Assembly (NCBI RefSeq): GCF_041248615.1
Contig: NZ_CP158426.1
Origin: Escherichia coli
GTDB lineage: Bacteria > Pseudomonadota > Gammaproteobacteria > Enterobacterales > Enterobacteriaceae
DNA length: 64,000 nucleotides
Reading direction: 5' to 3' (one strand)
Made by a program: the position numbers and the translations under genes. The notes under the pieces were generated by a model. It searched no databases. It was given only the letters and a program-made list of their open reading frames with translations, and was not told where the DNA came from. This document shows positions 1 to 56,208 of the stretch, one piece after another; positions within the stretch are counted from its first letter, which is position 1, and each line of letters begins with the position of its first letter.

Positions 1-313
1 GCATGGCTATGGATTGATAAATGATATCAAAACGTATCAGCTAGTTTCCACGGTTAGAGAAGATGGCTATTATACTTCAGAAACGGAACAACAGCGTTCC
101 GTTTCTGACGGACTGATTCTTCCGTAAATTCAGGTGTAAATCGTGGTGTGCCCATACGCTCCTCCTATGCTCAAACTATAGGGCAGGATCGTCTACCGGG
201 GTGGGGTCAGTCCACCAATGACTGAGAGGTGTCTGTTAAACCCGTGGCGATTCAGACATTACTCTTCCTATGTACACTGGAGTAGATTGAATAATCATAT
301 AATAATCAATCGG

Positions 314-342
314 TTGAAATCATTTAGGGCTTTTGTATTAAT
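314..342 (+). promoter_or_regulatory. candidate sigma70 promoter of the four-gene operon
   Basis: TTGAAA at 314-319, a 17-nt spacer, then TG-n-ATTAAT (extended -10) at 334-342. It lies about 50 nt upstream of the ATG at 390. Pattern match only. Confidence 0.4.
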
Positions 343-389
343 AGTATTGAGATGGTTTGGTCATGGTTCCAGTTCATAAGGAAATAGTT

Positions 390-1442
390 ATGGGAATTAG
401 TGTTCGAGTCTTGCAAGCAAATCATGGTGATTGTTTCTTAGTTAGTTATAAGAGCTCAGATAGTGTTTACAACTTGCTAATTGATGGTGGTAATAGCGCC
501 ACATTTATGTTTGGGGCTCAAGGGCGCTACAGTGGTGAGCTTAAATGTGTACTCGATGATTTGAAAAAAGAAGGTCAGAAAATTGACTTGGTTATCTTAA
601 CCCATATAGATGATGATCATATCGGTGGTTTGCTTAGGGCTTTTGAAACACCAGGTTATCTATGCCAAATGGCTTCTTCTATCTGGTTTAATTCTTCAAG
701 ATTTATCACCAAACATTTTAAGGTTGATGAAATTTCAGACAATGATGTCTGTCTTCAAAGTAACTCAACGCAGACAAGTGCTAGGCAAGGGAAGAAACTG
801 GAAAACTTACTTGATGAAATCAATTGCGAACGGCAACCCATAGTTATTGCGGGGCAGAAGTTTACAAGGGGTCCGTTCACATTCACGATCTTATCCCCTG
901 AAGAAGATAATCTACGTAGCCTTCTTCATAAGTGGCCAGATGAGCCAGATCCGGTTACGACATCCGGTGCTTCAAGGGATTATGGAATGAAATTTGAGGA
1001 TATTTTGTCTAATGATAAATTCCAGAGTGATCAATCTGTTTATAATGGTAGCTCAATTGCTTTCATCCTTGAAGCTGATGGTAAGGCTATGCTCTTTTTG
1101 GGCGATTCACATGATGAAAATATTGTCCGTAATTTACGATCTCTTGGTTTTAATGAAGGTAACAAGCTCAAACTCGACCTCGTGAAAATTTCTCATCATG
1201 GTAGCCAGTATAATACTAGCCCTGAATTTTTGTCGCTCATAGATGCGCAAAACTTCATTATATCCACTAATGGGAGTAAGCACGGACTTCCTGATAAGAG
1301 AACTATTGCACGGATTTTATCTTCAGGAGAAGGCAAAATCGGCTTCAATTATTCGCACATTATCCAGGAGATGCTTCACGAAAATGAGGTTCCATTGTAC
1401 TCTTCTCGCCTGGTAGCATTAAATGGAGAAATTAGGCTATAA
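390..1442 (+). CDS. metallo-beta-lactamase fold hydrolase, ComEC/Rec2-type (putative nuclease effector)
   Basis: Motifs seen: N-terminal HGDCFLV, LTHIDDDHIGG (an HxDxDH variant of HxHxDH), KISHHGSQYNTS, and STNGSKHGLP. These are typical of the ComEC MBL domain. AAGGA lies 7 nt upstream of the ATG at 390; the tracked ORF starts at TTG 357. Confidence 0.8.
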   Translation: MGISVRVLQANHGDCFLVSYKSSDSVYNLLIDGGNSATFMFGAQGRYSGELKCVLDDLKKEGQKIDLVILTHIDDDHIGGLLRAFETPGYLCQMASSIWFNSSRFITKHFKVDEISDNDVCLQSNSTQTSARQGKKLENLLDEINCERQPIVIAGQKFTRGPFTFTILSPEEDNLRSLLHKWPDEPDPVTTSGASRDYGMKFEDILSNDKFQSDQSVYNGSSIAFILEADGKAMLFLGDSHDENIVRNLRSLGFNEGNKLKLDLVKISHHGSQYNTSPEFLSLIDAQNFIISTNGSKHGLPDKRTIARILSSGEGKIGFNYSHIIQEMLHENEVPLYSSRLVALNGEIRL

Positions 1443-1443
1443 A

Positions 1444-2727
1444 ATGACCGCTTCAAATTTGATGGCTTCTAACGCAGTGATCGTGAACGAGGGCAGTGGT
1501 GTTCTTGTTAATGCGATGACTCAAGATTATTCATACGTACTCACAGCAAAACATGTGTTAGCGAAATCAGGTAGTCAAAATATCGTTACTAATCAATATG
1601 GTAACAGTCTTAGAGTGCTTGATGTATTGGTGGGTCAGGAAGAGCATTGCGACTGTGCTGTAATCAAAATTGAATATGTACCAACTGTTGCTCAGCAGTC
1701 CTTCCCTGCAATAGCATTACCCAATTCGGCTTTGCTAAAGTTTGTTGGTTTTCCGGGAACCGAGAGACTAAGCGCTACCCCGCTGAAAATCTATGATGGG
1801 CATGTAACAGATGTAAGGGAGGGGCTGATTAGCTTCACGATAGAAGGCAGTCCCTCAAAAACCGCAATCGATGGAATGTCTGGCGGTGGAATGTATTACA
1901 TAGTTAATGAACATCCCCTCCTTGTTGGTGTAGAATTTGGGATGGACAGTATTCGTCAAGATCTACAATATGGACGTATACAATGTAAAAGTTTAATTGT
2001 TTTTGAAGAGATAATTAATTTAAACAGTGCTGCTCCAATGGTTCCCGCTTATTTGGAGTGTTTTTCACGCTTAAAAGAATATATCTTCGATTTTAATGTT
2101 GTTGATAAAAATAGAGTTCTGAATCTGAAAAACGCATTAAATATTTTTGCAGATGAACTTATAGACAAAGGTATGCCACCACCATTTGAATTAATGTCCA
2201 AATACAAAACTGATTTGTTAGTAGGTCCATATCAAGTTGACGATGTTAAAAATAAAGAATTATGGGTTGCATATTTTGAATTTCTGATAATTTGCGCAAT
2301 TCTTGATAATGTAAGTATTGCCAATAGTTCTTATATAGAAAGTTTAGAGCGGCGTAGGAGAATTCTTTATACTCCGGATGGAAGTAATTGGGTCGGAAAG
2401 CTTGATGTAATCTTAAAAGTTGCTCGAAAGTTATTAGATAAAGATGGCATAGTAATTGTGGCATCTCCAGAAAATGGAGCCGAATTATTACCGGATGATT
2501 TTGAAGTCGATAGGGTTATAAGGAATATTGCGCGAATCGCTAATTCAGGTCCACTTGCTCCTATCGATCAAGTTGAAAAAGAGATGTATAAGAGTTTTGT
2601 ATTAACGCATCTTGAAGGGCTGAGAAAAAAATGTGTTATAAACAAAGAGAGAATGTATGCAGAAGTTGAAGCTGGCTTAGACCAACTTCAGACGTTTAAG
2701 GAAAGCTTTAATGAATTTATTAAATAA
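1444..2727 (+). CDS. trypsin-like (S1/Trypsin_2-type) serine peptidase with a ~230-aa non-catalytic C-terminal domain
   Basis: Catalytic triad context: TAKHV (His), CDCAVIKI (Asp), DGMSGGG (Ser). The start is ambiguous (ATG 1423 or ATG 1444). The gene abuts or overlaps the upstream stop and overlaps the next gene by 17 nt. Confidence 0.75.
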   Translation: MTASNLMASNAVIVNEGSGVLVNAMTQDYSYVLTAKHVLAKSGSQNIVTNQYGNSLRVLDVLVGQEEHCDCAVIKIEYVPTVAQQSFPAIALPNSALLKFVGFPGTERLSATPLKIYDGHVTDVREGLISFTIEGSPSKTAIDGMSGGGMYYIVNEHPLLVGVEFGMDSIRQDLQYGRIQCKSLIVFEEIINLNSAAPMVPAYLECFSRLKEYIFDFNVVDKNRVLNLKNALNIFADELIDKGMPPPFELMSKYKTDLLVGPYQVDDVKNKELWVAYFEFLIICAILDNVSIANSSYIESLERRRRILYTPDGSNWVGKLDVILKVARKLLDKDGIVIVASPENGAELLPDDFEVDRVIRNIARIANSGPLAPIDQVEKEMYKSFVLTHLEGLRKKCVINKERMYAEVEAGLDQLQTFKESFNEFIK

Positions 2728-3262
2728 AGAATTTGATTTGGAATTTCTTAAATCTAGATTTTCTGATGCAGATTTCTATTTTTTTGTTTCTAATGATGAC
2801 TCATCTTATATTTCATGCGTAGCATGCTATTGTGAGAGCGCTAATTACGTGGTTGCGAATTGGACAGCGATTCAGAATTATTTATCTGCTTACTACCAAC
2901 CGAAGGATGAATTAGCTCTTTGGAATATATATTTAGTTTTCTTTTGTTCCGAAAAATTACCGATTTGGGATAAGTACCTTATAGATAATGATAAGTATTC
3001 TGTCAGAAAATTAATTATTGACGGGTTAACTACTCTGCCAAGTATTTCCGAAACTGTAACTTTTCTGAACAATCATCTGCTAGGCGCAGACCTAGAATTA
3101 ACTGAAATAGAGGAGAAGAAGGAGATAGAGTTATCATTAATTGAGTATATAAGTGGAACTCCTTTAGATTCAAAGGTTGAGTCGAGAGATGAGCGTATGA
3201 GCAGAATTGATAAAATTATTAATCTAGTGAGTTCAAATAAAAATGAAAATAAAAAAAGTTGA
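2711..3262 (+). CDS. small hypothetical protein, possibly the middle or adaptor component of the ATPase system
   Basis: 183-aa ORF overlapping both neighbours (17 nt and 20 nt), with an acidic, coiled C-terminus. No motif recognised by eye. Confidence 0.6.
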   Translation: MNLLNKEFDLEFLKSRFSDADFYFFVSNDDSSYISCVACYCESANYVVANWTAIQNYLSAYYQPKDELALWNIYLVFFCSEKLPIWDKYLIDNDKYSVRKLIIDGLTTLPSISETVTFLNNHLLGADLELTEIEEKKEIELSLIEYISGTPLDSKVESRDERMSRIDKIINLVSSNKNENKKS

Positions 3263-6200
3263 AATAGAAGGCTTTCGAGCATACAGATTCAAGGAAGATG
3301 GTACTTTCGATTTTACAAATAAAGATGATACGCCATCCAATTTTGTAGCGATCTATGCACCCAATGGCTTTGGAAAAAGTTCATTCTATGATGCGGTTGA
3401 ATGGGCTATTACTCATAATTTAGATAGATTTGCGGGTGAATATAATAAAAAAAATTATGAGCAAGCTGCCAGGAGCACGAAAGAGGACGGTGTTGCACAA
3501 AAAATACTACGTAATAAAGATGTACCAGACAATATTCCTACTCGTGTAACAGTTTTCACTACTTTACCAACTCCATTCGAACAAAGTTTAGGAACAGTTC
3601 GTTCTGATTCTAGAGATATAAGAATCGGCGAGAATAAAAATAAAATCAATGGCTATTTTAGAAAAGTGGTTCTTAGTCAAGATGAAATAGACCGTTTTTT
3701 AAAAGAAGCAAAGCCGCAAGATCGTTATAAGATGTTTATGGAGAGTTTTGGAGGTGAATGGGAAAAGGCGAGACAAGAGCTAACTATACTATTGAATGAC
3801 AATAAGGCGGTTTTGTTAAATCTCGAAAAAAACAAAAATGAACTTCAGGAACAACTAGATCAGCCTGTTGATGCGTCAACATTCATACAATTTAATAAAA
3901 TAGCATCTGAACTTGTAGCAGAAGGTGAAAGTTTACCATTAGTAGATGAAACAACTATAGTTAATACACAGCATGAGCTTTTGGAAAAAATAATCACAAG
4001 AAGTCACGAAATAAATTTTTCCTTAAACAAGAAAAAAATATTGAGAGATTCGATTTCTGAGTATATTTTAAAATTTCCTGATATCAGTTTTCGTACAACC
4101 CAGATTATCGAGAAAAAGAATAGACTAGAAAAAATAAATAAAGGGATAGAAGATGTCGGTCGTTATAAGACATTTCAGTCTACTCTTGAAAAACTGACTA
4201 TCGAAAAGAAAAAGATAAGTCAGAGCTTAAATTTTATAGAAGAATTAGATGGTTTATCCCAAGAGTTTTTAAGCTTGGAATTTAACTTGGAATCAGCTCG
4301 AAAGAAACATAGAGAGATTTCATATAATTATGAAAATGAAAAAACTCTCCTTGATAATTTATTCCAAACAAGAAACCAAAATGATGCTGATTTATCTTCA
4401 ATTGACAAGCGATGCTTATCTATACGTTCTACGTTAGAAAACGCTACGGTTACTTATTCTAATATATCTAATATACAAAATAAAATTTTAAATATAGTTT
4501 CTACGCAAACAGAATTAGAGCACAAACTTAATCAAGTTAGATCCGAATACCAAAAAAACAAATCCGAATTAAACAAAGTATCAGATTTAACAATAACCGC
4601 CAAATCATTACTTTCATCAGACTTAAGTCTAATTGATTTATCTTCAGATTTATTAAAAGAACTAAACAACTTATCGCAAGAACTAAATATATTGGTCCTA
4701 CATGATCAATCAATTCATAACACACAAGAATCTCTTTCTGCACAAATGGGAGTTCACGAACGTCTAATTGCATCGGGCCTTGAGTACTTAAGTTTATGGC
4801 CGACTAATATATGTCCTTTATGTCACAAGCCGCATGACTCTGAGTCCTCTCTTAGAGAACAAGTAACAAATACTGACGTAATATCCATGCTTAGTAAAGA
4901 GAATGCAGCTAAGCTCGAGATATCCTCAAAACGGCGGTCAGAGTTAAATGGCAAGATAGAATCCATCGTACAGAAAGCCCTTGAAATTAAAATGAGTAAA
5001 CTTGAGGTATTAAGTAAAAAGGTCAATCAACAAGGAAATGAGATACATCGAGAAGAACAGCACTATACAGCTCTTTTAGCAGAAAAACAGTCTGTCCAAA
5101 ATCAGTTAAACGAGTTGCAGAAGGCTGTAGCTGGACTAACTAAAGATGAATTATTAGCTCGCTTAGATGCTGAACTTAAAGAATTAGAGGCCAAGAAAAA
5201 TGAAGTGATAAAAAACAAGCTGACCTTGACGAAAAATATTAACGTTAAAAGAACGTTGATTACAGAGTTAAGTGGGGCGATCAATTTACTTAATACGCAA
5301 ATTCATGAAATGATGTCATCATCTAACTATTTAAAAACAAAAGCTTACTCTGAAGAAAATGGCTTGTCATCGGAGTTTTTGAAAGAACATTATGATGATA
5401 AACGCCATTTTTACCTTAAAAATATAAATGGACTCAATTTTGAGATTAATAATATTACCAGCCAATTAAATGATCTTCAGAAAGCTATGATAGCCGATGA
5501 AATGTGGCTGGATTATGAAGAAATGATTTCTGAAAAAGAGAATTTCGAGGATTATATTTCTAAATCAGAAGCGGTTTTACAATCTTATTCATCATTATTA
5601 AAGCAGCATTTTGAACTACCAAAATATGAATCTTTAGTTGAATTGAAAGATTTCCTGATAAGCTCACTTGATAAAGAAACTAGGCTTTATAATGGTCTAG
5701 AGGAACGGCTTGGAAAATATAATTTATTATCAGAACTTTTGAAAACAGCAGAGTCGTTTGTAAAAAGTATTAAGTTGCAGAATGATATTAATGAAACCTT
5801 AGGTCTTATAGAAATAAGAAAAGAAGTTGATTTAGCTCTGACTAAGGAACGAAATCAAGTAATAGAGGAACTTAGAAACTTGATAAAATCTTTCTTTTAT
5901 GAGGAACTCATTAATTCTATTTATAAGAGAATAGATCCACATCCATCACTTAAGAAAGTGGTGTTTCGCCCAGATTTTGACTCATCAGATAAACCTGGTC
6001 TTAATATAGTTGTCAGTGATGAAAAAGGTGATATGGTATCTCCAATATTATTCTTTAGTGCAGCGCAATTAAATATTCTAAGCCTTAGTGTCTTTTTAGC
6101 AAGTGCTTTGCATGCAAAAGATGATAATGGAAATGTAATTGATGTGATTATGATTGATGATCCAATTCAATCAATGGATTCAATTAATATCCTATCCACA

Positions 6201-6380
6201 ATTGATCTTCTTAGAAGTATTACCGTTAGATTCAACAAACAAATAATAATATCAACACATGACGACAATTTCTTTGGCTTGCTCCAACGTAAAATCCCTT
6301 CGGAAATATTGGGTGCCAAGTTTCTTAAATTGGAGAAATTTGGGGTTGTAGTGCCTGTTGATGATTTAAATAATACATGA
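3243..6380 (+). CDS. Rad50/SbcC/SMC-like ABC ATPase with a long coiled-coil insert and a central CxxC hook-like motif
   Basis: N-terminal beta-strand plus Walker A (IEGFRAY...YAPNGFGKSSFYDAVEWA). Q-loop-like LSQDE. About 700 aa of E/K/L/N-rich coiled coil. CPLC at residues 524-527 of 1045. C-terminal signature-like FFSAAQLNILSLS, Walker B VIMIDDP, D-loop SMD, H-loop ISTHD. Confidence 0.85.
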   Translation: MKIKKVEIEGFRAYRFKEDGTFDFTNKDDTPSNFVAIYAPNGFGKSSFYDAVEWAITHNLDRFAGEYNKKNYEQAARSTKEDGVAQKILRNKDVPDNIPTRVTVFTTLPTPFEQSLGTVRSDSRDIRIGENKNKINGYFRKVVLSQDEIDRFLKEAKPQDRYKMFMESFGGEWEKARQELTILLNDNKAVLLNLEKNKNELQEQLDQPVDASTFIQFNKIASELVAEGESLPLVDETTIVNTQHELLEKIITRSHEINFSLNKKKILRDSISEYILKFPDISFRTTQIIEKKNRLEKINKGIEDVGRYKTFQSTLEKLTIEKKKISQSLNFIEELDGLSQEFLSLEFNLESARKKHREISYNYENEKTLLDNLFQTRNQNDADLSSIDKRCLSIRSTLENATVTYSNISNIQNKILNIVSTQTELEHKLNQVRSEYQKNKSELNKVSDLTITAKSLLSSDLSLIDLSSDLLKELNNLSQELNILVLHDQSIHNTQESLSAQMGVHERLIASGLEYLSLWPTNICPLCHKPHDSESSLREQVTNTDVISMLSKENAAKLEISSKRRSELNGKIESIVQKALEIKMSKLEVLSKKVNQQGNEIHREEQHYTALLAEKQSVQNQLNELQKAVAGLTKDELLARLDAELKELEAKKNEVIKNKLTLTKNINVKRTLITELSGAINLLNTQIHEMMSSSNYLKTKAYSEENGLSSEFLKEHYDDKRHFYLKNINGLNFEINNITSQLNDLQKAMIADEMWLDYEEMISEKENFEDYISKSEAVLQSYSSLLKQHFELPKYESLVELKDFLISSLDKETRLYNGLEERLGKYNLLSELLKTAESFVKSIKLQNDINETLGLIEIRKEVDLALTKERNQVIEELRNLIKSFFYEELINSIYKRIDPHPSLKKVVFRPDFDSSDKPGLNIVVSDEKGDMVSPILFFSAAQLNILSLSVFLASALHAKDDNGNVIDVIMIDDPIQSMDSINILSTIDLLRSITVRFNKQIIISTHDDNFFGLLQRKIPSEILGAKFLKLEKFGVVVPVDDLNNT

Positions 6381-6404
6381 TTTATTTAGTGTGTTAACCA
6401 TAAA

Positions 6405-6440
6405 ATAAGAACTGGGCCAGTGACGACCCAGTTCTTATTT
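6405..6440 (+). terminator. hairpin terminator after the ATPase gene
   Basis: Perfect 12-bp stem ATAAGAACTGGG/CCCAGTTCTTAT (6405-6416 and 6427-6438) with a 10-nt loop. It lies 25 nt after the stop codon, and the T-tract is weak. Confidence 0.55.
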
Positions 6441-6544
6441 ATAGGGGAACCTATTTTTATCGCAATAAATTAAGAGCGAAGATATGGTGAAAATTGTTAA
6501 AATATGAATTTTTTTAATTTTTTATCTAAAGCCCCTGTTTTCAT

Positions 6545-6840
6545 TATCGTATAAATCAATCTGGACGATTTGTTCTTCAGGTGCAAGGGTATCCGCAAAC
6601 TAGCGCAGGCTATCACCGCCTATAAGCTCCAGAATATGATCAAGTCCATGCCCTCCTGACAACCCAATCGCCTGTAATGACCATTCAGGAATGATTTGCT
6701 CTTTTGATGACTCAACCACAAATGTATCGAGCTCAGTCTTTGCTTAGAGCAGAATTTGAGCCCAAGACTTCCACTCGTATCATCGTAGGTCAGCGTTTCT
6801 CAGAAAATAACCCATGTAACCACGGCATCCGTCTCCGAAT
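6545..6840 (-). pseudogene. degraded gene remnant of unknown family
   Basis: My minus-strand translation gives protein-like stretches (KTELDTFVVESSKEQIIPEWSLQAIGLSGGHGLDHILELIGGDSL..LAPEEQIVQIDLYDNEN) broken by in-frame stops. No intact ORF is present. Confidence 0.3.
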
Positions 6841-6995
6841 GTTATCCTAGAAACAATATTGAGGGGGGAATGTAGAATCATAACCTCTGAATTAACGTAG
6901 ATTAAATCATTCGATCTAAATCAGAGCATTCATAGTGATGGTACACTCAGCACCAGACAAAGATCTCTAGGGGTTTGTTCTAATAAACATGGCCC

Positions 6996-7256
6996 TCATT
7001 CCTTCTGGTGAAATTCGGAATCTGATTGCGTAGGATAATTACATCCAGGAATCGGGCTAGCATTACAGCCCCCTAAGGGTGTTGTTTGCAACGGTTCATG
7101 TTTGTCTGAGTAACTATATTCCTGAATGTGTTGCTCCGAATTTACGGATTGCCTTGCAGAAAAGGGCTGTTCTGGCGTTGTGCTTTGAAAGGCGTACACC
7201 TGAGGAGCACAGAGCCACAGGAAGGGCAGTAGGGTGCAGCGGGCGAGTACATTCAT
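6996..7256 (-). CDS. small secreted hypothetical protein
   Basis: 86-aa ORF with GGAGA 6 nt upstream of the ATG. Signal-peptide-like N-terminus ending VYA-FQ. Confidence 0.5.
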   Translation of the reverse strand: MNVLARCTLLPFLWLCAPQVYAFQSTTPEQPFSARQSVNSEQHIQEYSYSDKHEPLQTTPLGGCNASPIPGCNYPTQSDSEFHQKE

Positions 7257-7696: not shown

Positions 7697-8416
7697 TCAG
7701 AAGTAGGTTGTCCAGAAAGAGGAAACTGGCATCGCCAGTACCAATGCAGGAAGCATACTGGCTACCGGGAAGACCTTGATACCGGAAATACGCAGGCCGG
7801 TCGCCACCATTAGAACGCCACCCACAGCTGAAAAGTCGGCCTGCATGGCAGGCGTGGTCAGGGGCAATATATATATCGCGCTGTAGGCGAGTGCTAACTG
7901 AATGATAAGCTGGGGGAAAGCGACTAATGCCACGGCGTAACCCAGGGTTGTGGCAAAAATGAGGGCGGTCAGCAAATCCAGGAACGCTTTCGCGATAAGG
8001 ATACTCGAGTCCCCGGTCATGCCTTCGTGCATCGCACCAAAAATACCGGTGCCACTGGCACAAAAAAGGACGATGATCGCCACATAGTTTTGTAAAAACT
8101 GCGCCTGTGAGTCTTTGTCTCCGGGATCGCTTTTCACGACGAGCTCCACCAACCCACGGGCTTGTCCGCCCAGGTGGCTTATCCCTTTTTCCAGATAGCA
8201 GAGCTCGCCCACCAGTGTGCCGAGAAGGACCGATAGAACCATGACGGGCATATGGCTGACACTTGTCACAAGGACGATCCCCATACACAGGGAGGCAGCA
8301 CCAAAAATGAGCGGCATTGAGGTACGTAACCTTTCAGGTAGACGTGAGCTAATGATGGCTCCTGCCATCCCGCCGATCACGACGGCAGAGCCGTTGAACC
8401 ATGGGCCTGTAATCAT
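7697..8416 (-). CDS. DUF554 (YqgA-like) inner-membrane protein
   Basis: 239-aa polytopic hydrophobic protein with an N-terminus like YqgA-family proteins (GxxxNxxAVxxGGxxG). Its start overlaps the stop of the UbiX-like gene (ATGA), so the two are co-operonic. Confidence 0.75.
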   Translation of the reverse strand: MITGPWFNGSAVVIGGMAGAIISSRLPERLRTSMPLIFGAASLCMGIVLVTSVSHMPVMVLSVLLGTLVGELCYLEKGISHLGGQARGLVELVVKSDPGDKDSQAQFLQNYVAIIVLFCASGTGIFGAMHEGMTGDSSILIAKAFLDLLTALIFATTLGYAVALVAFPQLIIQLALAYSAIYILPLTTPAMQADFSAVGGVLMVATGLRISGIKVFPVASMLPALVLAMPVSSFWTTYF

Positions 8417-9027
8417 AGCGATTTACTCCTGTTATTCAGGTTGGGAGTTTCACCCCAGCGCGGCAATGTGTCGCAATCAAGGTCGAGTAAACTCAGCGCC
8501 CGCGCAACACTATGAGCGAAGATGTTCTCAGTACTTGCAGGGCGTGCATACCAGGCAGGTACGGGTGGAAAAATGATGCCGCCGGTTTCGGTAACCTGAA
8601 GCATGTTACGAAGGTGCCCGGTATGCAGCGGCGTTTCCCGTACCATCAGAACCAGCCTCCGGCGCTCTTTCAGGGTCACATCGGCTGCCCGCACCAGCAA
8701 ACTGTTGGTTAAGCCCGCCGCAACAGCGGCGAGGGTGTTCATAGAGCAGGGGACAATCAACATCCCGGATGCCCTGAACGAACCGCTGGCGATGTCGGCT
8801 GCAATATCATCAAAGGGATAAATTACATCAGCCAGCTTATGAACGTCGTCTTCTGACAAAGTGGTTTCCAGACTGCGGGTCAGATGAGCGGCAGGAGAAA
8901 TCACAACGTGACTTTCCACGTTAAGTTGTCGCAGATAACGCAGGGCCTGCACTCCATATAAAAAACCGGATGCACCACTGATCCCAATGATGACGCGCTT
9001 GCGAGGAGAACATTCAGATGTCGACAT
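8413..9027 (-). CDS. UbiX-family flavin prenyltransferase
   Basis: 204 aa. Motifs GISGASG, VVISPAA, LIVPCSMNTLAAVAAG and LVLMVRETPLH are typical of UbiX/Pad1. Confidence 0.9.
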   Translation of the reverse strand: MSTSECSPRKRVIIGISGASGFLYGVQALRYLRQLNVESHVVISPAAHLTRSLETTLSEDDVHKLADVIYPFDDIAADIASGSFRASGMLIVPCSMNTLAAVAAGLTNSLLVRAADVTLKERRRLVLMVRETPLHTGHLRNMLQVTETGGIIFPPVPAWYARPASTENIFAHSVARALSLLDLDCDTLPRWGETPNLNNRSKSL

Positions 9028-9037
9028 TATGGCGTCC

Positions 9038-10522
9038 TCAGTACTTGAAGTTATCCGGGAGGAAACGACTGATCTCGACCTCCATGAATTCGCTGCGGCG
9101 AAACTGGCCTTTCATCGTGAACGGAACGGTACAGTCGAAAATAGTTTTACAGGCGATCCCGTGGTCGCGGACGGAGTAACTAAAAGCCGGGTCAGAGGAC
9201 GGATCGAGGGGATGGCACCTTACGCCGGGTATGAACACCGTGCTGATATCCCCCTGATAGCGTGTCGTCATTGCCCATATCACGTCATTGAGATCGAAAA
9301 TATCCACATCGTCATCAACCAGAATCACATGCTTGAGTTCCGAGAATGCGGAGAAGGCCAGAAGAGCCGCCTGGCGCTGACGACCTTCATCGTTTGGCAG
9401 ACGTTTTTTCACCTGCAATACGGCAAGATATTTTCCGGTCCCGGGTGACGGGCAGTGAACATTTTGCACAAAGCCGGGAAGGGCGCGCTCCACCAGTTGC
9501 AGAATACTGGCCTCGGTGGGGATCCCTGCCATATTGGTATGCTCGTCACTTGGACCAATGCAGGTCTGTAGAATTGGGTGACGGCGGTGGGTGATGGCTT
9601 TCACTTTTATCACTGGCACCATTTGCTGTGCCTGTCCGGTATAGCCGGGGAATTCCGGCATGGCTTTACCACTGTTGGTATTTTGATCCTCCCTGACCCG
9701 ATAGTTAGGAATGAGTTCCCCCTCGATAACGACTTCGGCGTTCGCAATGGCCCGGGCATTCACGGTCAGACACTGGCACAGCTCAACAGGCTGTTTACGC
9801 AAGCTCCCTGCCACTGACAGTTCGTCAAAACCAAGTGGAGTTGTGGGCGGTTCGAAGCAGGCACCGATTTCAATGGCTGGGTCAACACCAATGCTGATCG
9901 AGATGGGAAGTGGGGCCCCATCTTCCTCTGCTTTCTGACGGAACAAATCCAGATGCCGACCGGGAACGAAGTACATGGATATTTCATCCCTGTTTTGCAC
10001 GCACAGTCGGTGAATAGTGATGTCATGCTCGCCGGTATGTGGATCGGCGGCGTAGCACATACCGAGAGTGAAGTAAGGACCGGCATCCTCCGGCGTATTC
10101 GTGGGTGCTGGCAGGATATTGAGGATACTGAAATCCGGATCGGATGCCAGATGGACTACTTCCTGACAGACGGCATTTTCCTGCGGAATAACGACAGGAC
10201 TTATCGGGGTGCTTACCGCGTCTTTCAGTAAAAAGGCCAGCTTATCGGGTGTGGTATCCAGTAGCCGGGCCACGCGTTTTCGCGAGGCGAGAAGACCTAT
10301 CAGCACTCGCATATCGGTATAGCCTTTAATCCGGTTAAAGAGCATGGCTGGACCGATACGAGTCGGACGCATGACCGTACCGTGTGCCCCAATGTAGCGG
10401 TACACCCCTGACAGTTCTGCACTTGGATCAACGGGTTCATCGGTTTCGATAAGCTCATCATCAAACTTGCGCAGTACGGCCAGCGCACTGCGTAGGTCAG
10501 TCACTTTTTGTGTTTGAGACAT
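9038..10522 (-). CDS. UbiD-family (AroY-like) reversible aromatic-acid decarboxylase
   Basis: 494 aa with a full-length UbiD-family pattern (VDP..EL.GVYR, IHRLCVQ, EFPGY, PTEASI, ILVDDDVDIFD, WAMTTR). It sits directly upstream of the UbiX-like gene. Confidence 0.9.
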   Translation of the reverse strand: MSQTQKVTDLRSALAVLRKFDDELIETDEPVDPSAELSGVYRYIGAHGTVMRPTRIGPAMLFNRIKGYTDMRVLIGLLASRKRVARLLDTTPDKLAFLLKDAVSTPISPVVIPQENAVCQEVVHLASDPDFSILNILPAPTNTPEDAGPYFTLGMCYAADPHTGEHDITIHRLCVQNRDEISMYFVPGRHLDLFRQKAEEDGAPLPISISIGVDPAIEIGACFEPPTTPLGFDELSVAGSLRKQPVELCQCLTVNARAIANAEVVIEGELIPNYRVREDQNTNSGKAMPEFPGYTGQAQQMVPVIKVKAITHRRHPILQTCIGPSDEHTNMAGIPTEASILQLVERALPGFVQNVHCPSPGTGKYLAVLQVKKRLPNDEGRQRQAALLAFSAFSELKHVILVDDDVDIFDLNDVIWAMTTRYQGDISTVFIPGVRCHPLDPSSDPAFSYSVRDHGIACKTIFDCTVPFTMKGQFRRSEFMEVEISRFLPDNFKY

Positions 10523-10710
10523 TACGTTTTCCTCAGTAAGTCGCCGGGAGACAGCATGCCCGGTGTGCTTTTATCTTCATCCTGCAGGCAATCACAGGAC
10601 GAGCCGTTACATCACTGACAGTATGTGAGGCAACATAAATCCCCGTCTAATCACATTAACGACGTTTTTAATGTGGGATTGTTATCGAAAAATAGTGATT
10701 GGAGGAACGT

Positions 10711-11592
10711 GTGGACTATCGGTATTTGCATGCATTTGTGGTGCTTGCCAGAGAACTGCATTTTGGAAAAGCCGCACTGCGGCTCAACATCACGCAGCCA
10801 GCCTTAAGCCGTCAGATTAGAGTGCTGGAAGATCAGCTTGGCATGGTGCTATTTACGCGTGATCGTCGTCATGTGGCGCTGACTGTGGAAGGAACTCAGC
10901 TTGCAGCGGAGGCGCGGAGCGCCGTCAGTCATTACGAAAAAATGCTGAGCCGTGCGAGTAGCCTTCGAAAAGGCTATAAAGGACAACTCATACTGGGTTA
11001 TGTCGGATCTTCCATTCTTGATCCCGCCCTGACACGGTTAATCACCTGTTTTCGCGAGACTAAACCGGATGTTGAGATTGTTATTGAGGAGCACAACGTT
11101 GACGAACAGCTCACCCTCCTGCTCGACCATCAACTGGATATGGGGCTGCTCCGATCGCCTGTTCCGCATTTTGCCAACCTGGACTACGTGGATATCGCCA
11201 CCAGGTCACTCATCGCCGCAGTACCGCACACGCATCCGCAGGCAGGAGTCGGTAAAATAGAGCTGGAGACGTTGTCCGGGGATACATTTATGATCCAGAA
11301 AGATCCGCCCGGGGTCGGGCTAGGCTGGTCTGCATTACATGCCTGTGAGATGGCCAGTTTTGTCCCACCCAAAATCTATTTTACTCGCGATGTTGCGGTG
11401 GCTATTGGCATGGTGTCGATGGGAATAGGAGTTACGCTGGTGCCAGAAACCCAGCGTTCTGTAACGTTGCCTAATGTCTGCTACTGCCTGCTGCACGATC
11501 CCGAGGTCACAACGACCTTAACGCTTTGCTGGCCGAAATTCAGGAAAAGCAGGGAATTGATAGAGTTTGTACGCTCTTTAACGCTTGGTTGA
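10711..11592 (+). CDS. LysR-family transcriptional regulator, divergent from the decarboxylase operon
   Basis: N-terminal HTH YRYLHAFVVLARELHFGKAALRLNITQPALSRQIRVLE plus a LysR substrate-binding domain. GTG at 10711 gives the canonical MDYRYL start; the tracked ORF starts at TTG 10699. Confidence 0.9.
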   Translation: MDYRYLHAFVVLARELHFGKAALRLNITQPALSRQIRVLEDQLGMVLFTRDRRHVALTVEGTQLAAEARSAVSHYEKMLSRASSLRKGYKGQLILGYVGSSILDPALTRLITCFRETKPDVEIVIEEHNVDEQLTLLLDHQLDMGLLRSPVPHFANLDYVDIATRSLIAAVPHTHPQAGVGKIELETLSGDTFMIQKDPPGVGLGWSALHACEMASFVPPKIYFTRDVAVAIGMVSMGIGVTLVPETQRSVTLPNVCYCLLHDPEVTTTLTLCWPKFRKSRELIEFVRSLTLG

Positions 11593-12412: not shown

Positions 12413-13357
12413 ATGACTATGTCCCTGCATACCAAGATAAGTGCCCCTAACACGACAGCGGCGACCAGCGTATCCTCGCTGGATCTGTCAGGCTCCTCAA
12501 AAACGAAATGTTCAACAGCCAGAACCGATATTTATCAGACTGTTACCGACAGCATAATTGCGGCGCTGGAAACCGGAGTAAAACCTTGGGTGTGTCCTTG
12601 GCAGCGAGCTCCCGGTATGTCCGGTTTACCGTCCAATTACGCCACTGGTAAGGCTTACAGCGGAATGAATATCATGTTGCTTTGGTGCAGCGCGTCAAAA
12701 CAGGGATTCTGTGATTCACGCTGGATGACCTACAAACAGGCAAAAGCGGTAGGTGGGCAGGTGCGCAAGGGAGAACACGGCACTACCGCGATTTTCTATA
12801 CCACGCTGGAAAAGGAAAATGATAACGGAGAAACTGACTATATTCCTATGCTGAAAGCATTCACTGTGTTTAATGTTGAACAAATTGACGGTTTACTCCT
12901 GAGTGATGATGCCGTTTTTCCGGCAGAGATCTTTGAGCCATTACCACGTGCAGAAGCACTTTTTCGTAGTAGCGGTGCAACCATTATTGAAAAAGGACAG
13001 AATGCTTTTTTTACACCATCAACCGACGAAATTCGCTTACCTGAACGGTATCTTTTTATTGATGCTGCTAATTTCTACGCAACCGGCCTGCATGAGCTCG
13101 TTCACTGGAGTGGGGCAAAAAGTCGGCTGAACCGTGAAATGAAAGGGAAATTTGGCAGCGAGGGGTATGCGTTTGAAGAGTTGATCGCTGAGCTGGGGAG
13201 CGCATTCCTGATGGCGGATCTGGGGATAGTTGGAGAAGTTCTGCATGACAGTTATATCGCTTCCTGGCTTAAAGCACTGAGGAATGATAAACGCTATATT
13301 TTCAAGGCCGCCAGCGCGGCATCGAAAGCACATCGCTATTTGATGGATAAAAGCTGA
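12413..13357 (+). CDS. ardC: ArdC-type antirestriction protein (N-terminal ssDNA-binding domain plus zincin metalloprotease)
   Basis: N-terminal YQTVTDSIIAALETGVKPWVCPW and GMN..LL motifs of the ArdC N-domain. C-terminal HELVHW zinc-metalloprotease motif. 314 aa. Confidence 0.85.
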   Translation: MTMSLHTKISAPNTTAATSVSSLDLSGSSKTKCSTARTDIYQTVTDSIIAALETGVKPWVCPWQRAPGMSGLPSNYATGKAYSGMNIMLLWCSASKQGFCDSRWMTYKQAKAVGGQVRKGEHGTTAIFYTTLEKENDNGETDYIPMLKAFTVFNVEQIDGLLLSDDAVFPAEIFEPLPRAEALFRSSGATIIEKGQNAFFTPSTDEIRLPERYLFIDAANFYATGLHELVHWSGAKSRLNREMKGKFGSEGYAFEELIAELGSAFLMADLGIVGEVLHDSYIASWLKALRNDKRYIFKAASAASKAHRYLMDKS

Positions 13358-20342: not shown

Positions 20343-21098
20343 TTAAATTTGCATTGAGGTAGCGATATCGAGACGTTGCAGTTCGTCAATCGTGTAGATG
20401 CGGAACACATTCCTGTGGCGGGTTTCCAGTGGGATGTGTTGATGATTCACGATGACGTACTGGATGCTGTCAAACAGCCGTTCAAGACCGAGTTTTTTTT
20501 GCGGGTCTGGCACAATATAAAAAACGTAGATCCAGTCTTTACGCGTTCGGGCCAGTAAATGACTGGCTATGATCGACTGGTAACGGGCTTTGGTTTTCAG
20601 ATGGCGCTCGGTCTCGATGGCGATCACCGTGCCGCTGGGGAGGGCAATTAGCCCGTCCGGGCGGTGACTGACCTGATAACGACTCAGGAAAGTTGTGCGA
20701 TCGCCATGTATCCAGCCGCATGCGCCTTTTTTTTCGAGGATGATCCGCGCCATCTGATTATCAAGGTGATGTTCCAGCGTCCAGCCTGTGAGTTTTGAAG
20801 GCTCAAACCGGGCCGGGAAAATTTCATCATCAGGCTGTATTACGACCGCCAGCCCGTCGTTGGTTATTCCCCACAATGAAATTTTCTTCGTACGTGATAC
20901 CAGGACGTGTTTTTGTATTAACCCCATTCCCTCAACTTTTGAAAGCAGGGAATACAGTGATTTATGATCCCTGAAGCCGAACAGCAGCATCAGTGTTGTA
21001 AAATCACTGTACGTTTCTTCTTTCAGGAAATTCAGCAGTCGTATTATCTTCTCGCGATGTCGGGTCTGGCGCTCGCGGTATGCGGTGATAAGCATCAT
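20343..21098 (-). CDS. mobC: MobC-like protein: winged-helix plus PD-(D/E)xK nuclease fold (MOBC-family relaxase candidate, CloDF13 MobC-like)
   Basis: 251 aa. N-terminal wHTH-like segment (IIRLLNFLKEE...LLSKVEGMGLIQKH). C-terminal RPDGLI...VIAIETERHLKTK fits a D..E.E/K nuclease motif. It sits immediately downstream of the coupling protein. Confidence 0.55.
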   Translation of the reverse strand: MMLITAYRERQTRHREKIIRLLNFLKEETYSDFTTLMLLFGFRDHKSLYSLLSKVEGMGLIQKHVLVSRTKKISLWGITNDGLAVVIQPDDEIFPARFEPSKLTGWTLEHHLDNQMARIILEKKGACGWIHGDRTTFLSRYQVSHRPDGLIALPSGTVIAIETERHLKTKARYQSIIASHLLARTRKDWIYVFYIVPDPQKKLGLERLFDSIQYVIVNHQHIPLETRHRNVFRIYTIDELQRLDIATSMQI

Positions 21099-21106
21099 TT
21101 CCCCTT

Positions 21107-23032
21107 CTAAAAGTTCAGTAACGAGGGATGATCCTCTTTACCTGCACCTGCACCTGCACCTGCACCTGCACTTGTTGTTGTGTGTTTCTCGTCCGGCTTG
21201 TCAAAAAAGAGATCGGGTTGTGTTGTCGTGATAACTGATGTTGATGACGGTCCGGATGACATTTCTTCCTCGTCAAAATTCAGGGCAATGTTGACTCTTG
21301 CGGCGGTGGCGGCAACAGCGGGCGATACGGCACAGATCGCCAGTTCCCTTTTTTTAACCCTGATGGGAGAAATTAGTGAAGCAGAGGGGAGGGCTTTGGT
21401 GGTGAATATAAAACTGACAAAATCAGGCAGGTTCAGCACCATATTACTGTCGATAAAGAAACGCTCGGCCTGCCTGATGGTGCGTTCACTATCGATAGTC
21501 TCTGTCAGCACCGCATCTGTTTTGGCTTTGCGGACTTCGTCATCGACTAATATGGTGCCTGACATTCTTGCCACCCAGTCAGCGGTATCAGGGTCCATGA
21601 CACGATAAACCAGCTTGAATTTGGCATTCTCCACAACTGCACCCACCACGGCATCGCTTTTCAAATCCGCCGGGCAATCTTTTAAATCGGCAATGGATTG
21701 GTGGTCCATAATAATGTGTACACCTTTATCCCGTGCCGCACCTAAGCCTTCCAGCGCAGGCTTGGATAAATGGTATTTCAGTTCGGAAAGGTAAATAGCA
21801 ATAGGGCGGGGTGTGTGGTTTACCCGATCGCGCCTTTCTGCCAGCTGGTACAGGCGAACCAGCAGCATGCGCTGAGCGGTAATAATTTTGCTGTTGCGCA
21901 TCGAGCCAATCACATAGCAGCAACCACCGTTATCAAATATTGTATTGAGGGAAAATCCTGCCGGTGCATTGATGGCATTGAGTAAGGCCAGCTCCTCAAT
22001 TTTCCCGAAAAAGGCTTTTATCTTATCAGCGATACTTTGGACGTATTCCCCGTTATACACATCCCGAATGGTTGAGGTCGTATTACGGGCGACAAATTGT
22101 GCAGCTATTCGGGCTGCTTTGCGATCGTCAATGCGATAAAAGTCAGACTCTTGTCCTTTCTCTGCCAGACTGAAACCCGCGACAAAAAGTTCTTCCAGTT
22201 CATCAGCGGTGATATCGTTAATCAGGTTTAGCTGGTATGCCTGTTTCCTCAGGTCAATTAGGGCAAAGGATTTCCCTGCATCCTCGCAGGCTTTCCGGTA
22301 AAGGTGTGGGGCCCACTCATCATCTTTGGGGTCCATAACAAATACGCCTTCACCGGCCAAAATACTCTGATAAAGTAATATCCCGGTGGCCACCCCTTTA
22401 CCGGCCCCCGTGGTCCCGATGATATCGGCATGTTGTTTTTGCCAGTCTTTTAACGGCAGGTACATCGGCTGTTTCATTCTGTTCATGCCGATAAAAATAC
22501 CTTTACTCAGGTTAATATAATCCTCCGGGTTATAGTGCAATGTTTCCGGTAGCAGCGATTTCACCGTTCGGACATCAGTACGTAATTCCCTTTCCAGAGT
22601 GGTTTTTCTGACGAACCGACTTTTTACTTTATCGAGTTCAGGTGTTAACACCCTGCGCAGAAGAATATGGAAAACAAAACCGGCTGCGGTAGAGGTAATC
22701 AGTATCAGCCAGGAGAGGACAGTATTGCTGGTGGCTATCTTTATTCGGTATATCCATTGAAATAATTCGTTCACCACGGGCGCTATTGTGCCAAACAAAA
22801 AGCACAGTATGGAAAAAACTATCACCAGCTTTTTCCATAAAGGGGCTTTGAGTCGTTCATCGCTTTTCATCGACGCGAAGAATGGCATGGTCAGCCCTGA
22901 GAATAGCGCCAAAATAGGTTGATGCTGGTGCATAAAAACGAGCAGTCCCAGCATGCCGTCCACTATCGGTGATAGTGAAACGATCAGCTTATTTAACACC
23001 ATAATGCTTCCTTTATCGGCCATTCGCCCCAC
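21107..23032 (-). CDS. mobB: type IV coupling protein (TraD/VirD4/CloDF13 MobB-like T4CP)
   Basis: N-terminal TM segments. Walker A IIGTTGAGKGV, Walker B-like VFVMDPKDDE, and a TraD/TraG C-terminal pattern. 641 aa. Confidence 0.9.
   Translation of the reverse strand: MGRMADKGSIMVLNKLIVSLSPIVDGMLGLLVFMHQHQPILALFSGLTMPFFASMKSDERLKAPLWKKLVIVFSILCFLFGTIAPVVNELFQWIYRIKIATSNTVLSWLILITSTAAGFVFHILLRRVLTPELDKVKSRFVRKTTLERELRTDVRTVKSLLPETLHYNPEDYINLSKGIFIGMNRMKQPMYLPLKDWQKQHADIIGTTGAGKGVATGILLYQSILAGEGVFVMDPKDDEWAPHLYRKACEDAGKSFALIDLRKQAYQLNLINDITADELEELFVAGFSLAEKGQESDFYRIDDRKAARIAAQFVARNTTSTIRDVYNGEYVQSIADKIKAFFGKIEELALLNAINAPAGFSLNTIFDNGGCCYVIGSMRNSKIITAQRMLLVRLYQLAERRDRVNHTPRPIAIYLSELKYHLSKPALEGLGAARDKGVHIIMDHQSIADLKDCPADLKSDAVVGAVVENAKFKLVYRVMDPDTADWVARMSGTILVDDEVRKAKTDAVLTETIDSERTIRQAERFFIDSNMVLNLPDFVSFIFTTKALPSASLISPIRVKKRELAICAVSPAVAATAARVNIALNFDEEEMSSGPSSTSVITTTQPDLFFDKPDEKHTTTSAGAGAGAGAGKEDHPSLLNF
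21140..21170. repeat. in-frame hexanucleotide repeat (ACCTGC)x5 encoding (Ala-Gly)5 in the T4CP C-terminal tail
   Basis: Read directly. It corresponds to SAGAGAGAGAGK, 11 residues before the stop. Confidence 0.9.
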
Positions 23033-23700
23033 GACATCGCCCCCTCAATTCGCCCCACGGTGTTGGGCGAAAAGCTGGGGTGAAAGCAGGGGCAAACAGA
23101 GGTGGCTGCGGTGCAGCCATGTGCCGGTAGATAGACTTTCCGGCCCGAAACGACGTGCACCAGTTCATGCGGGCTGGACGCCCTTATTGCCTGGCGCATG
23201 GGGGTAATGGCGTGGCTGTACGCCGCGCCAAAACCCCCAGGGTCAACGGCGGCACACCGTCGCCCGCTACGCGCGACCAACCCCTTTAAGACGCGCGTTT
23301 CGCCTGTTTTTTTCTCGCAAGCTCCAAAAAACGGGAACGCTGCTTTAAAGGGGTTGGTCGCGCCTGATTGGTAATATCCCCGCTGGGGCGGGAAATATTA
23401 CCTGGCTTGACGGTGTGCGGGGCAAGCCCCCCACAAAAAACGGCACGTGGGCGTGCCTTTTTGCTCGCTGGGGCGGCAAAATTTTTGCGGCTCCCCCGGC
23501 CTGCTTAATTCGCTGTGGGCGAATGTGCGCAGATGGATGCGGTACCTGAAAATTAACAATTTCTGCGAAATTGAATTTTCTGTCCGCGTTCCACTGGCTT
23601 ATTTCACGGCTTAACAATTTCTCCGAAATTGAAGCCAGAAATTAGCCAGCCTCAACCCCGCCGTCTGTCAGTCTGTGGCGCTGTGAGGCATAGTGTAATG
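23033..23700. other. non-coding repeat-rich region, candidate oriT / relaxosome assembly site
   Basis: 668 bp with no credible CDS, lying between mobB and the virB11-side operon. 19-bp perfect inverted repeat (23271-23289 / 23345-23363). TTCGCCCCACG direct repeats (about 23022 and 23047). Two 23-bp direct repeats (23553-23575 / 23611-23633, 22 of 23 identical). Several short GC hairpins. Confidence 0.5.
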
Positions 23701-23709
23701 TCCGGTGGT

Positions 23710-24015
23710 TCACACCTGTTCGCGATATATTTCAGCCCGGCATTCCTGTTCAGCCTTTAATACCTCCCGGTAGGTTTCATCATCGACTTTCGTTCCCTGA
23801 TTTTCGGCGTATCGTCTGAGTTTGTCAGCATCCTGTTCATTAAGACGCGAAAGATGATGTCGCAATAAACTGATCAGTCTACTTTCATAGATCTCATAGT
23901 AAAGGCCGCATCCCTGATTCGCTTCCTCAGAGAACTTTCTGTACACGGCTCCGACCGATATTCTGTCATGATGCATTGAGTGGATGTTGGAAATAAAAAG
24001 GTTTTCTTTATCCAT
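23710..24015 (-). CDS. hypothetical protein, last gene of the virB11-side operon next to the oriT-like region
   Basis: 101-aa ORF with a helical, charged C-terminus. No motif recognised. Confidence 0.45.
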   Translation of the reverse strand: MDKENLFISNIHSMHHDRISVGAVYRKFSEEANQGCGLYYEIYESRLISLLRHHLSRLNEQDADKLRRYAENQGTKVDDETYREVLKAEQECRAEIYREQV

Positions 24016-24063
24016 ATTTATTTCTCCCCAAAAAAAGGTACTAACATAATGGCCGGGGGGTTA

Positions 24064-24366
24064 TTATCCTCTGAGCCTACCAAATCTGGACAGGATTTTA
24101 TTCACCGCCTCTGGGTCGGCACTGGCACATTCTCCGAGGAAAGCTTTTCTGGCATTCAGTGTATGACCGGGTAAAAATCCGTGTTTATTCTTTTTGACGA
24201 TATTAAAGAAAGTTTTTTCAGCTGAATGGCACTCACTCCCTCCACTGTTTCCGGTCGCTTTCCCGTACATACAAAGCACGACTTCGCATGGGTCAGAGGC
24301 GAAGCAATAAACAGGGAGCACAATGGCAATGCACAGCATTACCGTCGCAATGGAGGCGTATTTCAT
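24064..24366 (-). CDS. TrbM-like small periplasmic conjugation protein
   Basis: 100 aa with a signal peptide. The Cys pattern (DPCEVVLCMYG...C...C) resembles TrbM-family proteins. Located in the T4SS context. Confidence 0.5.
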   Translation of the reverse strand: MKYASIATVMLCIAIVLPVYCFASDPCEVVLCMYGKATGNSGGSECHSAEKTFFNIVKKNKHGFLPGHTLNARKAFLGECASADPEAVNKILSRFGRLRG

Positions 24367-24410
24367 GATGAAGTCCTTACCATAATTTCTGTACCAGGAT
24401 ATCGGTATAT

Positions 24411-25825: not shown

Positions 25826-25862
25826 GTGATATCCTTGTATCGGATACATTTGTGGAGGGAGT

Positions 25863-28430: not shown

Positions 28431-28449
28431 GTGTACAGTTCCTCAGCTG

Positions 28450-30162: not shown

Positions 30163-30245
30163 GGGATGTTTCCTCAGTGGGTTGGATAGAGGGTAGTGTT
30201 AGCGCCGGGGGGATTGACGGAAATAGTATGCAAGGGATGACAAGT

Positions 30246-31310: not shown

Positions 31311-31320
31311 ATTAACCTCA

Positions 31321-56207: not shown

Positions 56208-56208
56208 A

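Follow-up and report, generated by a model that had tools for sequence, protein, structure and literature searches.

A four-gene Lamassu operon of Escherichia coli in which a trypsin-like protease probably activates a ComEC-like MBL nuclease

Judged from sequence matches, the genes at positions 390-6380 of the analysed window (the whole stretch of 64,000 nucleotides from Escherichia coli contig NZ_CP158426.1) form a Lamassu (ABC-3C) anti-phage operon of an already catalogued type, and by analogy with related systems we consider, at a probability of about 0.8, that its protease cuts and switches on its MBL nuclease in a single serial pathway. The subtype is Lamassu "hydrolase-protease", which is present in both DefenseFinder and PADLOC, and in ABC-3C notation the operon is written Trypsin(+MBL)-CTD4-MC1; the nomenclature of Krishnan et al. 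2020 is used here as it is carried by Pfam and later papers. PADLOC, DefenseFinder, Pfam and PGAP all have entries for this type of system, which is thus already known, and papers of 2025 have set out how the nuclease-protease pairing works. By homology with Lamassu, the E. coli operon would serve defence against phage or plasmids by abortive infection. The features are collected in Table 1.

Table 1. Features of the Lamassu hydrolase-protease operon, with positions in the window
Feature	Position (nt)	Strand	Basis or remark
Four-gene operon	390-6380	+	MBL hydrolase, protease-CTD4, LmuC/MComp1, LmuB; translationally coupled
lmuA-H (350 aa), stand-alone MBL hydrolase of ComEC-like type, predicted to be a gated pro-DNase	390-1442	+	PADLOC, Pfam, Foldseek
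MBL motif II, T71-H-I-D-D-D-H77, HxDxDH metal ligands	600-620	+	Alignments
Predicted gating loop 1, ~residues 110-130; predicted cut T129|S130 (codons 774-779)	717-779	+	
Predicted gating loop 2, ~residues 183-199; predicted cut T191|S192 (codons 960-965)	936-986	+	
lmuA-P, trypsin-like serine protease fused to ABC-3C CTD4, 434 aa	1423-2727	+	Pfam, PADLOC
lmuA-P protease domain, ~residues 17-185	1471-1977	+	Pfam Trypsin_2, 8.1e-08 (residues 24-157)
lmuA-P CTD4 module, residues 190-406	1990-2640	+	Pfam PF20280, E 6.1e-52
lmuC, middle component (MComp1), 183 aa	2711-3262	+	Pfam PF20289, E 9.3e-10, above cut-off; PADLOC
lmuB, SMC/Rad50-like ABC ATPase, 1045 aa	3243-6380	+	PADLOC LmuB PDLC03865

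PADLOC Lamassu models match all four proteins end to end (E 1e-44 to 1e-269). The hits are LmuA PDLC03854 for the MBL protein (6.8e-125, full length), LmuA PDLC03855 for the protease-CTD4 protein (1.2e-122, full length), LmuC PDLC03873 for LmuC (1.8e-44) and LmuB PDLC03865 for LmuB (1.6e-269, residues 1-1039), and they bear out the original prediction that both putative effectors belong to one ATPase-centred system. The neighbouring genes overlap by 20 nt (MBL/protease), 17 nt (protease/lmuC) and 20 nt (lmuC/lmuB), and the first of them starts at an ATG with AAGGA ahead. In NZ_LT599825.1 RefSeq/PGAP calls the same genes for the MBL protein and the protease, and PGAP assigns names of the ABC-three component system to the operon proteins. 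A promoter and terminator scan of positions 1-7000 gave 30 promoter-like sites where 29 are expected, which is uninformative.

The LmuB protein has the size seen in type II, "long" Lamassu and carries a Walker A motif APNGFGKS, a CxxC zinc hook CPLC at residues 524-527 (nt 4812-4823), a signature-like FSAAQ at 938, a Walker B motif VIMIDD at 968 and IISTHD at 1002. The Pfam families SMC_N and AAA_23 also match it, both under the curated cut-offs of Pfam.

The linkage of the genes was followed in 30 loci from distinct species having a protease-CTD4 homologue at 27-91% identity, 29 of which have upstream DNA. The MBL gene was found immediately upstream of the protease gene, abutting or overlapping it, in all 29 informative loci, and the LmuC and LmuB genes come next wherever the contig goes on. 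This adjacency implies that the MBL gene is a linked member of the cassette and no passenger, a point which had been singled out for checking beforehand.

The MBL protein was predicted to carry the hallmarks of the ComEC family, and all of them are present and conserved, namely H12-G-D14, KISHHGS at 266-272, STNG at 292-295 and HGLP at 298-301, along with T71-HIDDDH-77 as motif II. Conservation was read from alignments of 121 homologues per protein (46-100% identity) and from two further alignments, A1 and A2, the latter of 41 sequences. A2 shows no variation at T71, H72, D74, D76 and H77, and these residues are at least 98% conserved in the 121 homologues; G13, D14, H269 and H270 are invariant or at least 98% conserved in the 121. 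A1 and A2 agree with this, and in them H12 is at least 90% conserved, short of invariant. The metal motif THIDDDH was indeed found as predicted, but its reading as a departure from the family does not hold. The form HxDxDH is that of motif II in the ComEC C-terminal domain (PMC8579336), the ComEC MBL domain of PDB 9ic4 reads THPDADH at this place, and the motif is common to all experimentally studied trypsin-linked or caspase-linked MBLs, being seen in HamM, Avs1a, LmuA-H and CanC; HxDxDH is the norm of the ComEC clade and no variant. The protein is 31% identical to Bacillus LmuA-H, 31% to EpiAvs1a and 27% to PflHamM, it is matched by Pfam Lactamase_B, and it scores 207.5 bits against NF041809 (AVAST type 1 Avs1a equivalog), which does not reach the cut-off of 420. 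The protein is ComEC-like, and by analogy with its relatives it is probably a nuclease.

The catalytic triad of the protease is intact, as was predicted, and consists of H44 (TAKHV), D77 (DCA) and S153 (GMSGGG), which are invariant or at least 98% conserved among the 121 homologues and likewise in A1 and A2. The C-terminal half had been described as uncharacterised and as lying where the docking domains of LmuA and ABC-3C effectors sit; the position was rightly recognised, since the module is ABC-3C CTD4, of the docking-domain families CTD1-12, and the region is a catalogued one, as it is covered by a Pfam family and the PADLOC LmuA model matches the whole protein. The protease-containing PADLOC models of DRT UG9 and Avs2 also match this protein. 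Searched as a profile against the PDB sequences, the protease-CTD4 alignment had no hit at E <= 0.01, BLASTP of the protease domain against the PflHamA protease domain gave no significant similarity, and the AF2 model of the CTD alone was unusable (pLDDT 51.6).

In the MBL protein about 70 residues more than in 9ic4 are found between motif II and KxxHHGS, and these include two loops of low pLDDT, at 118-128 and 184-194 (AF2 pLDDT <50). T129 lies just past the first loop and T191 inside the second, and both are invariant and followed by Ser or Ala. In the MAFFT alignment T129 falls on PflHamM I118 and EpiAvs1a I134, where cleavage has been mapped, and also on I137 of Bacillus LmuA-H, and the context x[I/T]S[A/V]xQG of the first site aligns between the E. 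coli MBL and the MBLs of Hachiman and AVAST. The short-form MBL is cut at S128|S129 and S191|S192 (Huang et al. 2025, 10.1101/2025.09.03.673762), and these cuts coincide numerically with T129/S130 and T191/S192. We therefore predict that the MBL protein is cleaved at T129|S130 and T191|S192. Neither the Ile of the long form nor the KSS of the short form is present at the aligned cleavage positions, where Thr stands instead. From the alignments, the Thr sites may plausibly represent a third cleavage-specificity class besides Ile and KSS; that there is a class with P1 = Thr in the Lamassu-CTD4 clade, or that the protease has substrates beyond the MBL and with them a real second output, is regarded as unlikely.

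Two other residues, I115 (ISDN) and I205 (ILSN), were considered as cut sites by analogy to an I-S/G-N motif and set aside. I115 was rejected because the alignment of PflHamM, EpiAvs1a and Bacillus LmuA-H places the mapped Ile at T129. I205 is predicted to be helical and does not fall within the stretch of low pLDDT. At the second site the MAFFT column of the long-form Ile is occupied by M200, which is not conserved, and the alignment is unreliable there because loop 2 of the E. coli clade is shorter by about 23 residues.

The following course of events may be proposed. At rest, a LmuB dimer together with LmuC would bind the protease-CTD4 protein as a monomer via its CTD4 and keep the protease inactive, as suggested by the structures of Cap4-type Lamassu. 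LmuB would then detect aberrant DNA of phage or plasmid, for instance ends, hairpins and intermediates of replication, and ATP-dependent engagement of the LmuB heads would release LmuA-P, which would oligomerise via its CTD, a step known only from short Cap4 Lamassu. The oligomerised trypsin-like domains would cut the MBL in its two disordered gating loops, as is known from HamMAB and Avs1, and the unmasked ComEC-like DNase, probably Mn2+-dependent, would degrade DNA indiscriminately and so abort the infection. In this scheme the protease is the activator and the MBL nuclease the single terminal effector.

This proposal is modelled on published systems. In Hachiman and AVAST the activation of a pro-nuclease by its partner protease was established by biochemistry and genetics, and the same was proposed for Lamassu (Tuck et al., Science 2025, PMC12799240); an independent demonstration is that of Huang et al. 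2025 cited above. In both systems the DNase is unmasked when the protease cleaves it in two gating loops (PMC12799240; 10.1101/2025.09.03.673762). The pair of an MBL and a trypsin recurs in AVAST, Hachiman, DRT, Lamassu/ABC-3C, short Ago and DSR2 (same two sources). Sequestration, release and oligomerisation of LmuA in Lamassu are described in 10.1101/2025.03.14.643221 and 10.1101/2025.04.02.646746. For the Hydrolase-Protease Lamassu of B. cereus B4077 an experimentally validated defence is reported in 10.1101/2025.04.02.646746, with Millman 2022 as the work cited.

The design was originally thought to be an unusual one with dual output. The pairing has turned out to be recurrent and published, and in the tested systems the nuclease is switched on by the protease, so that a serial cascade is suggested instead. 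A true dual output, in which both enzymes once activated would attack separate targets of the cell or the phage side by side and each would add to defence on its own, is quite unlikely. Both enzymes have intact catalytic residues that are invariant or nearly so, further substrates of the protease are compatible with the data, and protease-bearing Lamassu subtypes are counted among the effector classes, all of which would agree with two outputs. Against this, in both sister systems the protease specifically cleaves the MBL and leaves other proteins uncleaved, and mutants of the nuclease, of the protease and of the cleavage sites each lose or lower defence (PMC12799240; 10.1101/2025.09.03.673762). 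The MBL and the protease are reported to co-evolve, and MBL swaps between systems to abolish function (10.1101/2025.09.03.673762). The strict adjacency of the two genes described above also speaks against two outputs, and the conserved Thr-Ser/Ala sites in loops predicted as disordered fit an enzyme and its substrate.

It is highly improbable that the MBL is no DNase and acts rather on an ester of the phosphocholine or teichoic-acid type (Pce-like), on a nucleotide signal or on RNA (RNase J-like). The MBL fold is catalytically versatile, and the best Foldseek match of the protein is the phosphorylcholine esterase Pce (2bib, 1.8e-10), followed by the ComEC MBL domain 9ic4 (2.5e-9), with RNase J and CPSF73 MBLs among the further matches. 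However, homologous HamM/MBL proteins degrade plasmid, ssDNA and dsDNA and do not act on RNA, beta-lactam or choline substrates (PMC12799240; 10.1101/2025.09.03.673762), and the motifs HxDxDH, KxxHHGS and STNG..HG.P are shared with the ComEC nuclease domain.

It is hardly credible that the MBL gene has nothing to do with the three-gene cassette, be it as a passenger or as a true competence (ComEC/Rec2) gene. PGAP gives its product the name "ComEC/Rec2 family competence protein" and TIGR00361 matches weakly, but that match scores 35.3 bits where the cut-off is 190 and is confined to the MBL part (NF008580 gives 15.9 against 969), the 350-residue protein has MBL-fold families only among its matches and no competence, OB-fold or membrane-domain family, and the gene stays next to the protease gene, with which it overlaps here, down to 27% protease identity. 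The PGAP name is wrong for such stand-alone defence nucleases.

The operon offers an E. coli-native example of the Lamassu trypsin-MBL pair in which the predicted gating loops are short and the candidate cleavage sites clean and invariant. The cascade, so far known in Hachiman and AVAST only, could be probed with it downstream of an SMC-like sensor.

Among known systems the closest is Lamassu Hydrolase-Protease, as it is recorded in DefenseFinder and PADLOC (Millman et al. 2022; B. cereus B4077 system), which has the same order of four genes, that is MBL, trypsin-CTD, LmuC and LmuB. Compared with the Bacillus LmuA-H, the E. coli MBL has shorter gating loops and has Thr in place of Ile137. The operon is also like Hachiman PflHamMAB and AVAST EpiAvs1a-Avs1b in that the MBL is directly upstream of a trypsin-like domain fused to a defence subunit, and its MBL shares motif II with theirs and has two low-pLDDT loops as candidate counterparts of their two disordered insertions. 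It differs from them in its sensor, which is the SMC-like LmuB/LmuC instead of the HamB helicase or the STAND NTPase (Avs1b), in its fusion partner CTD4, and in the predicted P1 residue, which is Thr against Ile or Ser. With the C-terminal MBL of ComEC/Rec2 (B. subtilis, Moorella; PMC8579336; 9ic4) the protein has in common the fold, HxDxDH and KxxHHGS, and a DNase chemistry that is probably Mn2+-dependent, whereas it is a stand-alone cytoplasmic protein with its extra residues forming two loops. The short Cap4-type Lamassu (V. cholerae DdmABC and Salmonella LmuACB; CTD7-MC3) likewise has LmuB as the sensor, LmuC, and an LmuA made of an effector and a CTD, and it is activated by release and CTD-mediated oligomerisation, a logic which we assume for the E. 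coli operon as well. Unlike it, the operon described here has CTD4 in place of CTD7, MC1 in place of MC3 and a long LmuB, and its effector is a protease that would need a second protein, the MBL, as executioner.

Four consecutive ORFs were called on the plus strand (357/390-6380), and the neighbouring genes overlap by 20, 17 and 20 nt in gene order, which is compatible with translational coupling and a single operon. The same genes are called by PGAP in E. coli NRZ14408 (NZ_LT599825.1, from position 2083672), which is 100% identical to the window. The G+C content of the cassette block is ~32-40% against ~50% for the flanking enterobacterial DNA, and among 5426 complete E. coli genomes just 9 contain at least 80% of the cassette. 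All four proteins are matched over their full length by PADLOC Lamassu models (table), the 183-aa protein is MComp1 (PF20289) in Pfam, and the ATPase, LmuB, carries Walker A (APNGFGKS), a CxxC hook at residue 524, a signature-like FSAAQ and Walker B (VIMIDD). Based on these sequence matches and motifs, the cassette is assigned to the already catalogued Lamassu "hydrolase + protease" subtype, and its LmuB of 1045 aa places it among the "long" Lamassu systems as classed by Haudiquet et al. The original prediction that a nuclease-like MBL and a protease belong to one system is supported.

Features of the Lamassu cassette and its surroundings, with PGAP names from NZ_LT599825.1 and full-length PADLOC Lamassu matches
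Feature	Position	Strand	PGAP name	PADLOC model	E-value
MBL-fold protein, 350 aa	390-1442	+	ComEC/Rec2 family competence protein	LmuA PDLC03854	6.8e-125
Protease-CTD4, 434 aa	1423-2727	+	ABC-three component system protein	LmuA PDLC03855	1.2e-122
Middle component, 183 aa	2711-3262	+	ABC-three component system middle component 1	LmuC	1.8e-44
ATPase, 1045 aa	3243-6380	+	AAA family ATPase	LmuB	1.6e-269
DUF554 protein, UbiX-like flavin prenyltransferase, UbiD-family decarboxylase, divergent LysR regulator	7697-11592
ArdC-family (anti-restriction) gene, then degraded integrase fragment; ~6 kb downstream of cassette	12413-13357
P-type T4SS/MobC genes: VirB2-B11-like genes, coupling protein, MobC	~20343-36040
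Tyrosine integrase, adjoining tRNA-Asn	48423-49694
tRNA-Asn	49856-49931
Lambdoid/Qin-Rac-like prophage, starting after tRNA-Ser (cga): frameshifted integrase, exonuclease, dicB, ydfABC, YdaT-family toxin, FRG-domain protein	50923-64000

The motifs listed at first reading were all located in the two putative effectors and are conserved. In the MBL they are H12-G-D14, T71-HIDDDH-77, KISHHGS (266-272), STNG (292) and HGLP (298), with key residues invariant or nearly so among 121 aligned sequences (46-100% identity). HxDxDH had been taken for a variant, but it is normal within this lineage and is shared with the ComEC MBL domain structure 9ic4 (THPDADH), PflHamM (THIDNDH), EpiAvs1a (THIDSDH), Bacillus LmuA-H (THIDQDH) and KaeCanC (THIDADH). 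The ComEC C-terminal domain has Asp in place of one motif II His, and its motif II Asp residues are required for Mn2+ binding and nuclease activity (Silale et al., PMC8579336). The AF2 model of the MBL (pLDDT 81, pTM 0.86) has Pce (2bib, 1.8e-10) and 9ic4 (2.5e-9) as its nearest PDB structures. A ComEC competence protein was rejected, as this protein has only 350 aa, matches MBL-fold families only and lies far below the ComEC equivalog cut-offs (TIGR00361, 35 bits against 190). The PGAP name is misleading for this stand-alone MBL domain.

The N-terminal part of the protease is Trypsin_2, and its triad, predicted to be intact, was found as H44, D77 and S153 (the last inside GMSGGG); it is invariant or nearly so among 121 aligned homologues (46-100% identity), so the possibility that it is not conserved was checked and discarded. 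The docking role proposed for the C-terminal module stands, but the module is not unrecognised, since residues 190-406 match PF20280, "C-terminal domain 4 of the ABC-3C systems" (E 6.1e-52). In E. coli 2018-06-4CC (NZ_AP021893.1 1820754-1829826), which has a cassette copy at 99.9% identity, ISApl1 (IS30-like) is inserted within this gene (equivalent to window ~2150-2300), and PGAP calls the halves separately as "S1 family peptidase" and "ABC-three component system protein". Here the protease and its CTD4 docking domain have become separated naturally.

A pattern scan with one genome per species gave 30 loci with a protease-CTD4 relative (27-91% identity). In 29 loci, tblastn places an MBL homologue directly against or across the start of the protease gene, and the one other locus has only 126 nt of contig upstream of its match; the MBL as a passenger gene was therefore rejected. 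LmuC and LmuB homologues come next wherever the contig runs on. Across these loci the MBL is consistently better conserved than its partner, with 41-62% identity to the query where the protease has 27-52%.

The cassette sits in a horizontally acquired region, with IS3 remnants directly upstream and the ArdC gene, integrase fragment, conjugation module and tRNA-Asn-associated tyrosine integrase downstream. It appears to form the distal end of an integrative conjugative or mobilisable island of ~50 kb. The higher-GC UbiX/UbiD block (GC 0.51-0.54) immediately downstream of the low-GC cassette is probably an aromatic-acid decarboxylase unit with no relation to the present finding. Five other E. 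coli genomes have a 90%-identical cassette at the same shiA-proximal site with other neighbours. In these five, NZ_CP070026.1 among them, it occupies the same shiA / GT9 / IS3 site, and downstream come DUF4150 and DUF2169 genes and an integrase-domain gene other than that of the window. The shared site with different downstream genes suggests that the four-gene block (~273-6587) travels as a unit inside a variable hotspot.

Two 2025 studies treat exactly this MBL-protease gene pair. In Tuck et al. (Science, PMC12799240) the MBL nuclease is an inactive "gated" proenzyme with both cleavage sites in disordered insertions; the partner protease cuts PflHamM after I118 and I218 and EpiAvs1a at I134, with I234 as a second conserved, mutagenesis-backed site. 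Protease dimerisation is enough for activation, and pre-cut nuclease is toxic. Huang et al. (10.1101/2025.09.03.673762) agree and name ABC-3C among the hosts; their short-form MBL is cut at S128|S129 and S191|S192, inside loops 107-129 and 184-203, and their data point to elastase-like specificity, with small residues favoured at P1.

The AF2 model of our MBL has three low-confidence segments, namely 42-46 (short), 118-128 and 184-194. The latter two fall between motif II and KxxHHGS, within ~70 residues by which this span exceeds that of 9ic4. In a MAFFT alignment with the published sequences of Tuck et al. Table S1, PflHamM I118, EpiAvs1a I134 and Bacillus LmuA-H I137 all align to T129, in the common context x[I/T]S[A/V]xQG. 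T129 is invariant within the clade, and Thr also stands in this column in each of the three distant MBLs aligned from the loci (L024, L029, L030; 41-48% identity). In the second loop T191 is the sole invariant residue, followed by Ser or Ala. Because of this alignment and invariance, cleavage is predicted at T129|S130 and T191|S192, the second site being weakly aligned.

The original prediction of a dual-output design is not favoured, as in the published trypsin-MBL work the protease activates the nuclease serially. By analogy, the evidence best supports a serial cascade in which an SMC-like sensor would activate the protease and this in turn the pro-DNase. The system type and likely mechanism are both already in databases and literature; for Lamassu the cascade is explicitly an extrapolation in Tuck et al., and the Thr-specific sites are predictions. 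In Cap4-type Lamassu structures, LmuB2-LmuC hold a LmuA monomer via its CTD, and DNA sensing leads to release and to activation through CTD-mediated oligomerisation; the CTD4 protease may, by analogy only, be held, released and oligomerised in the same manner.
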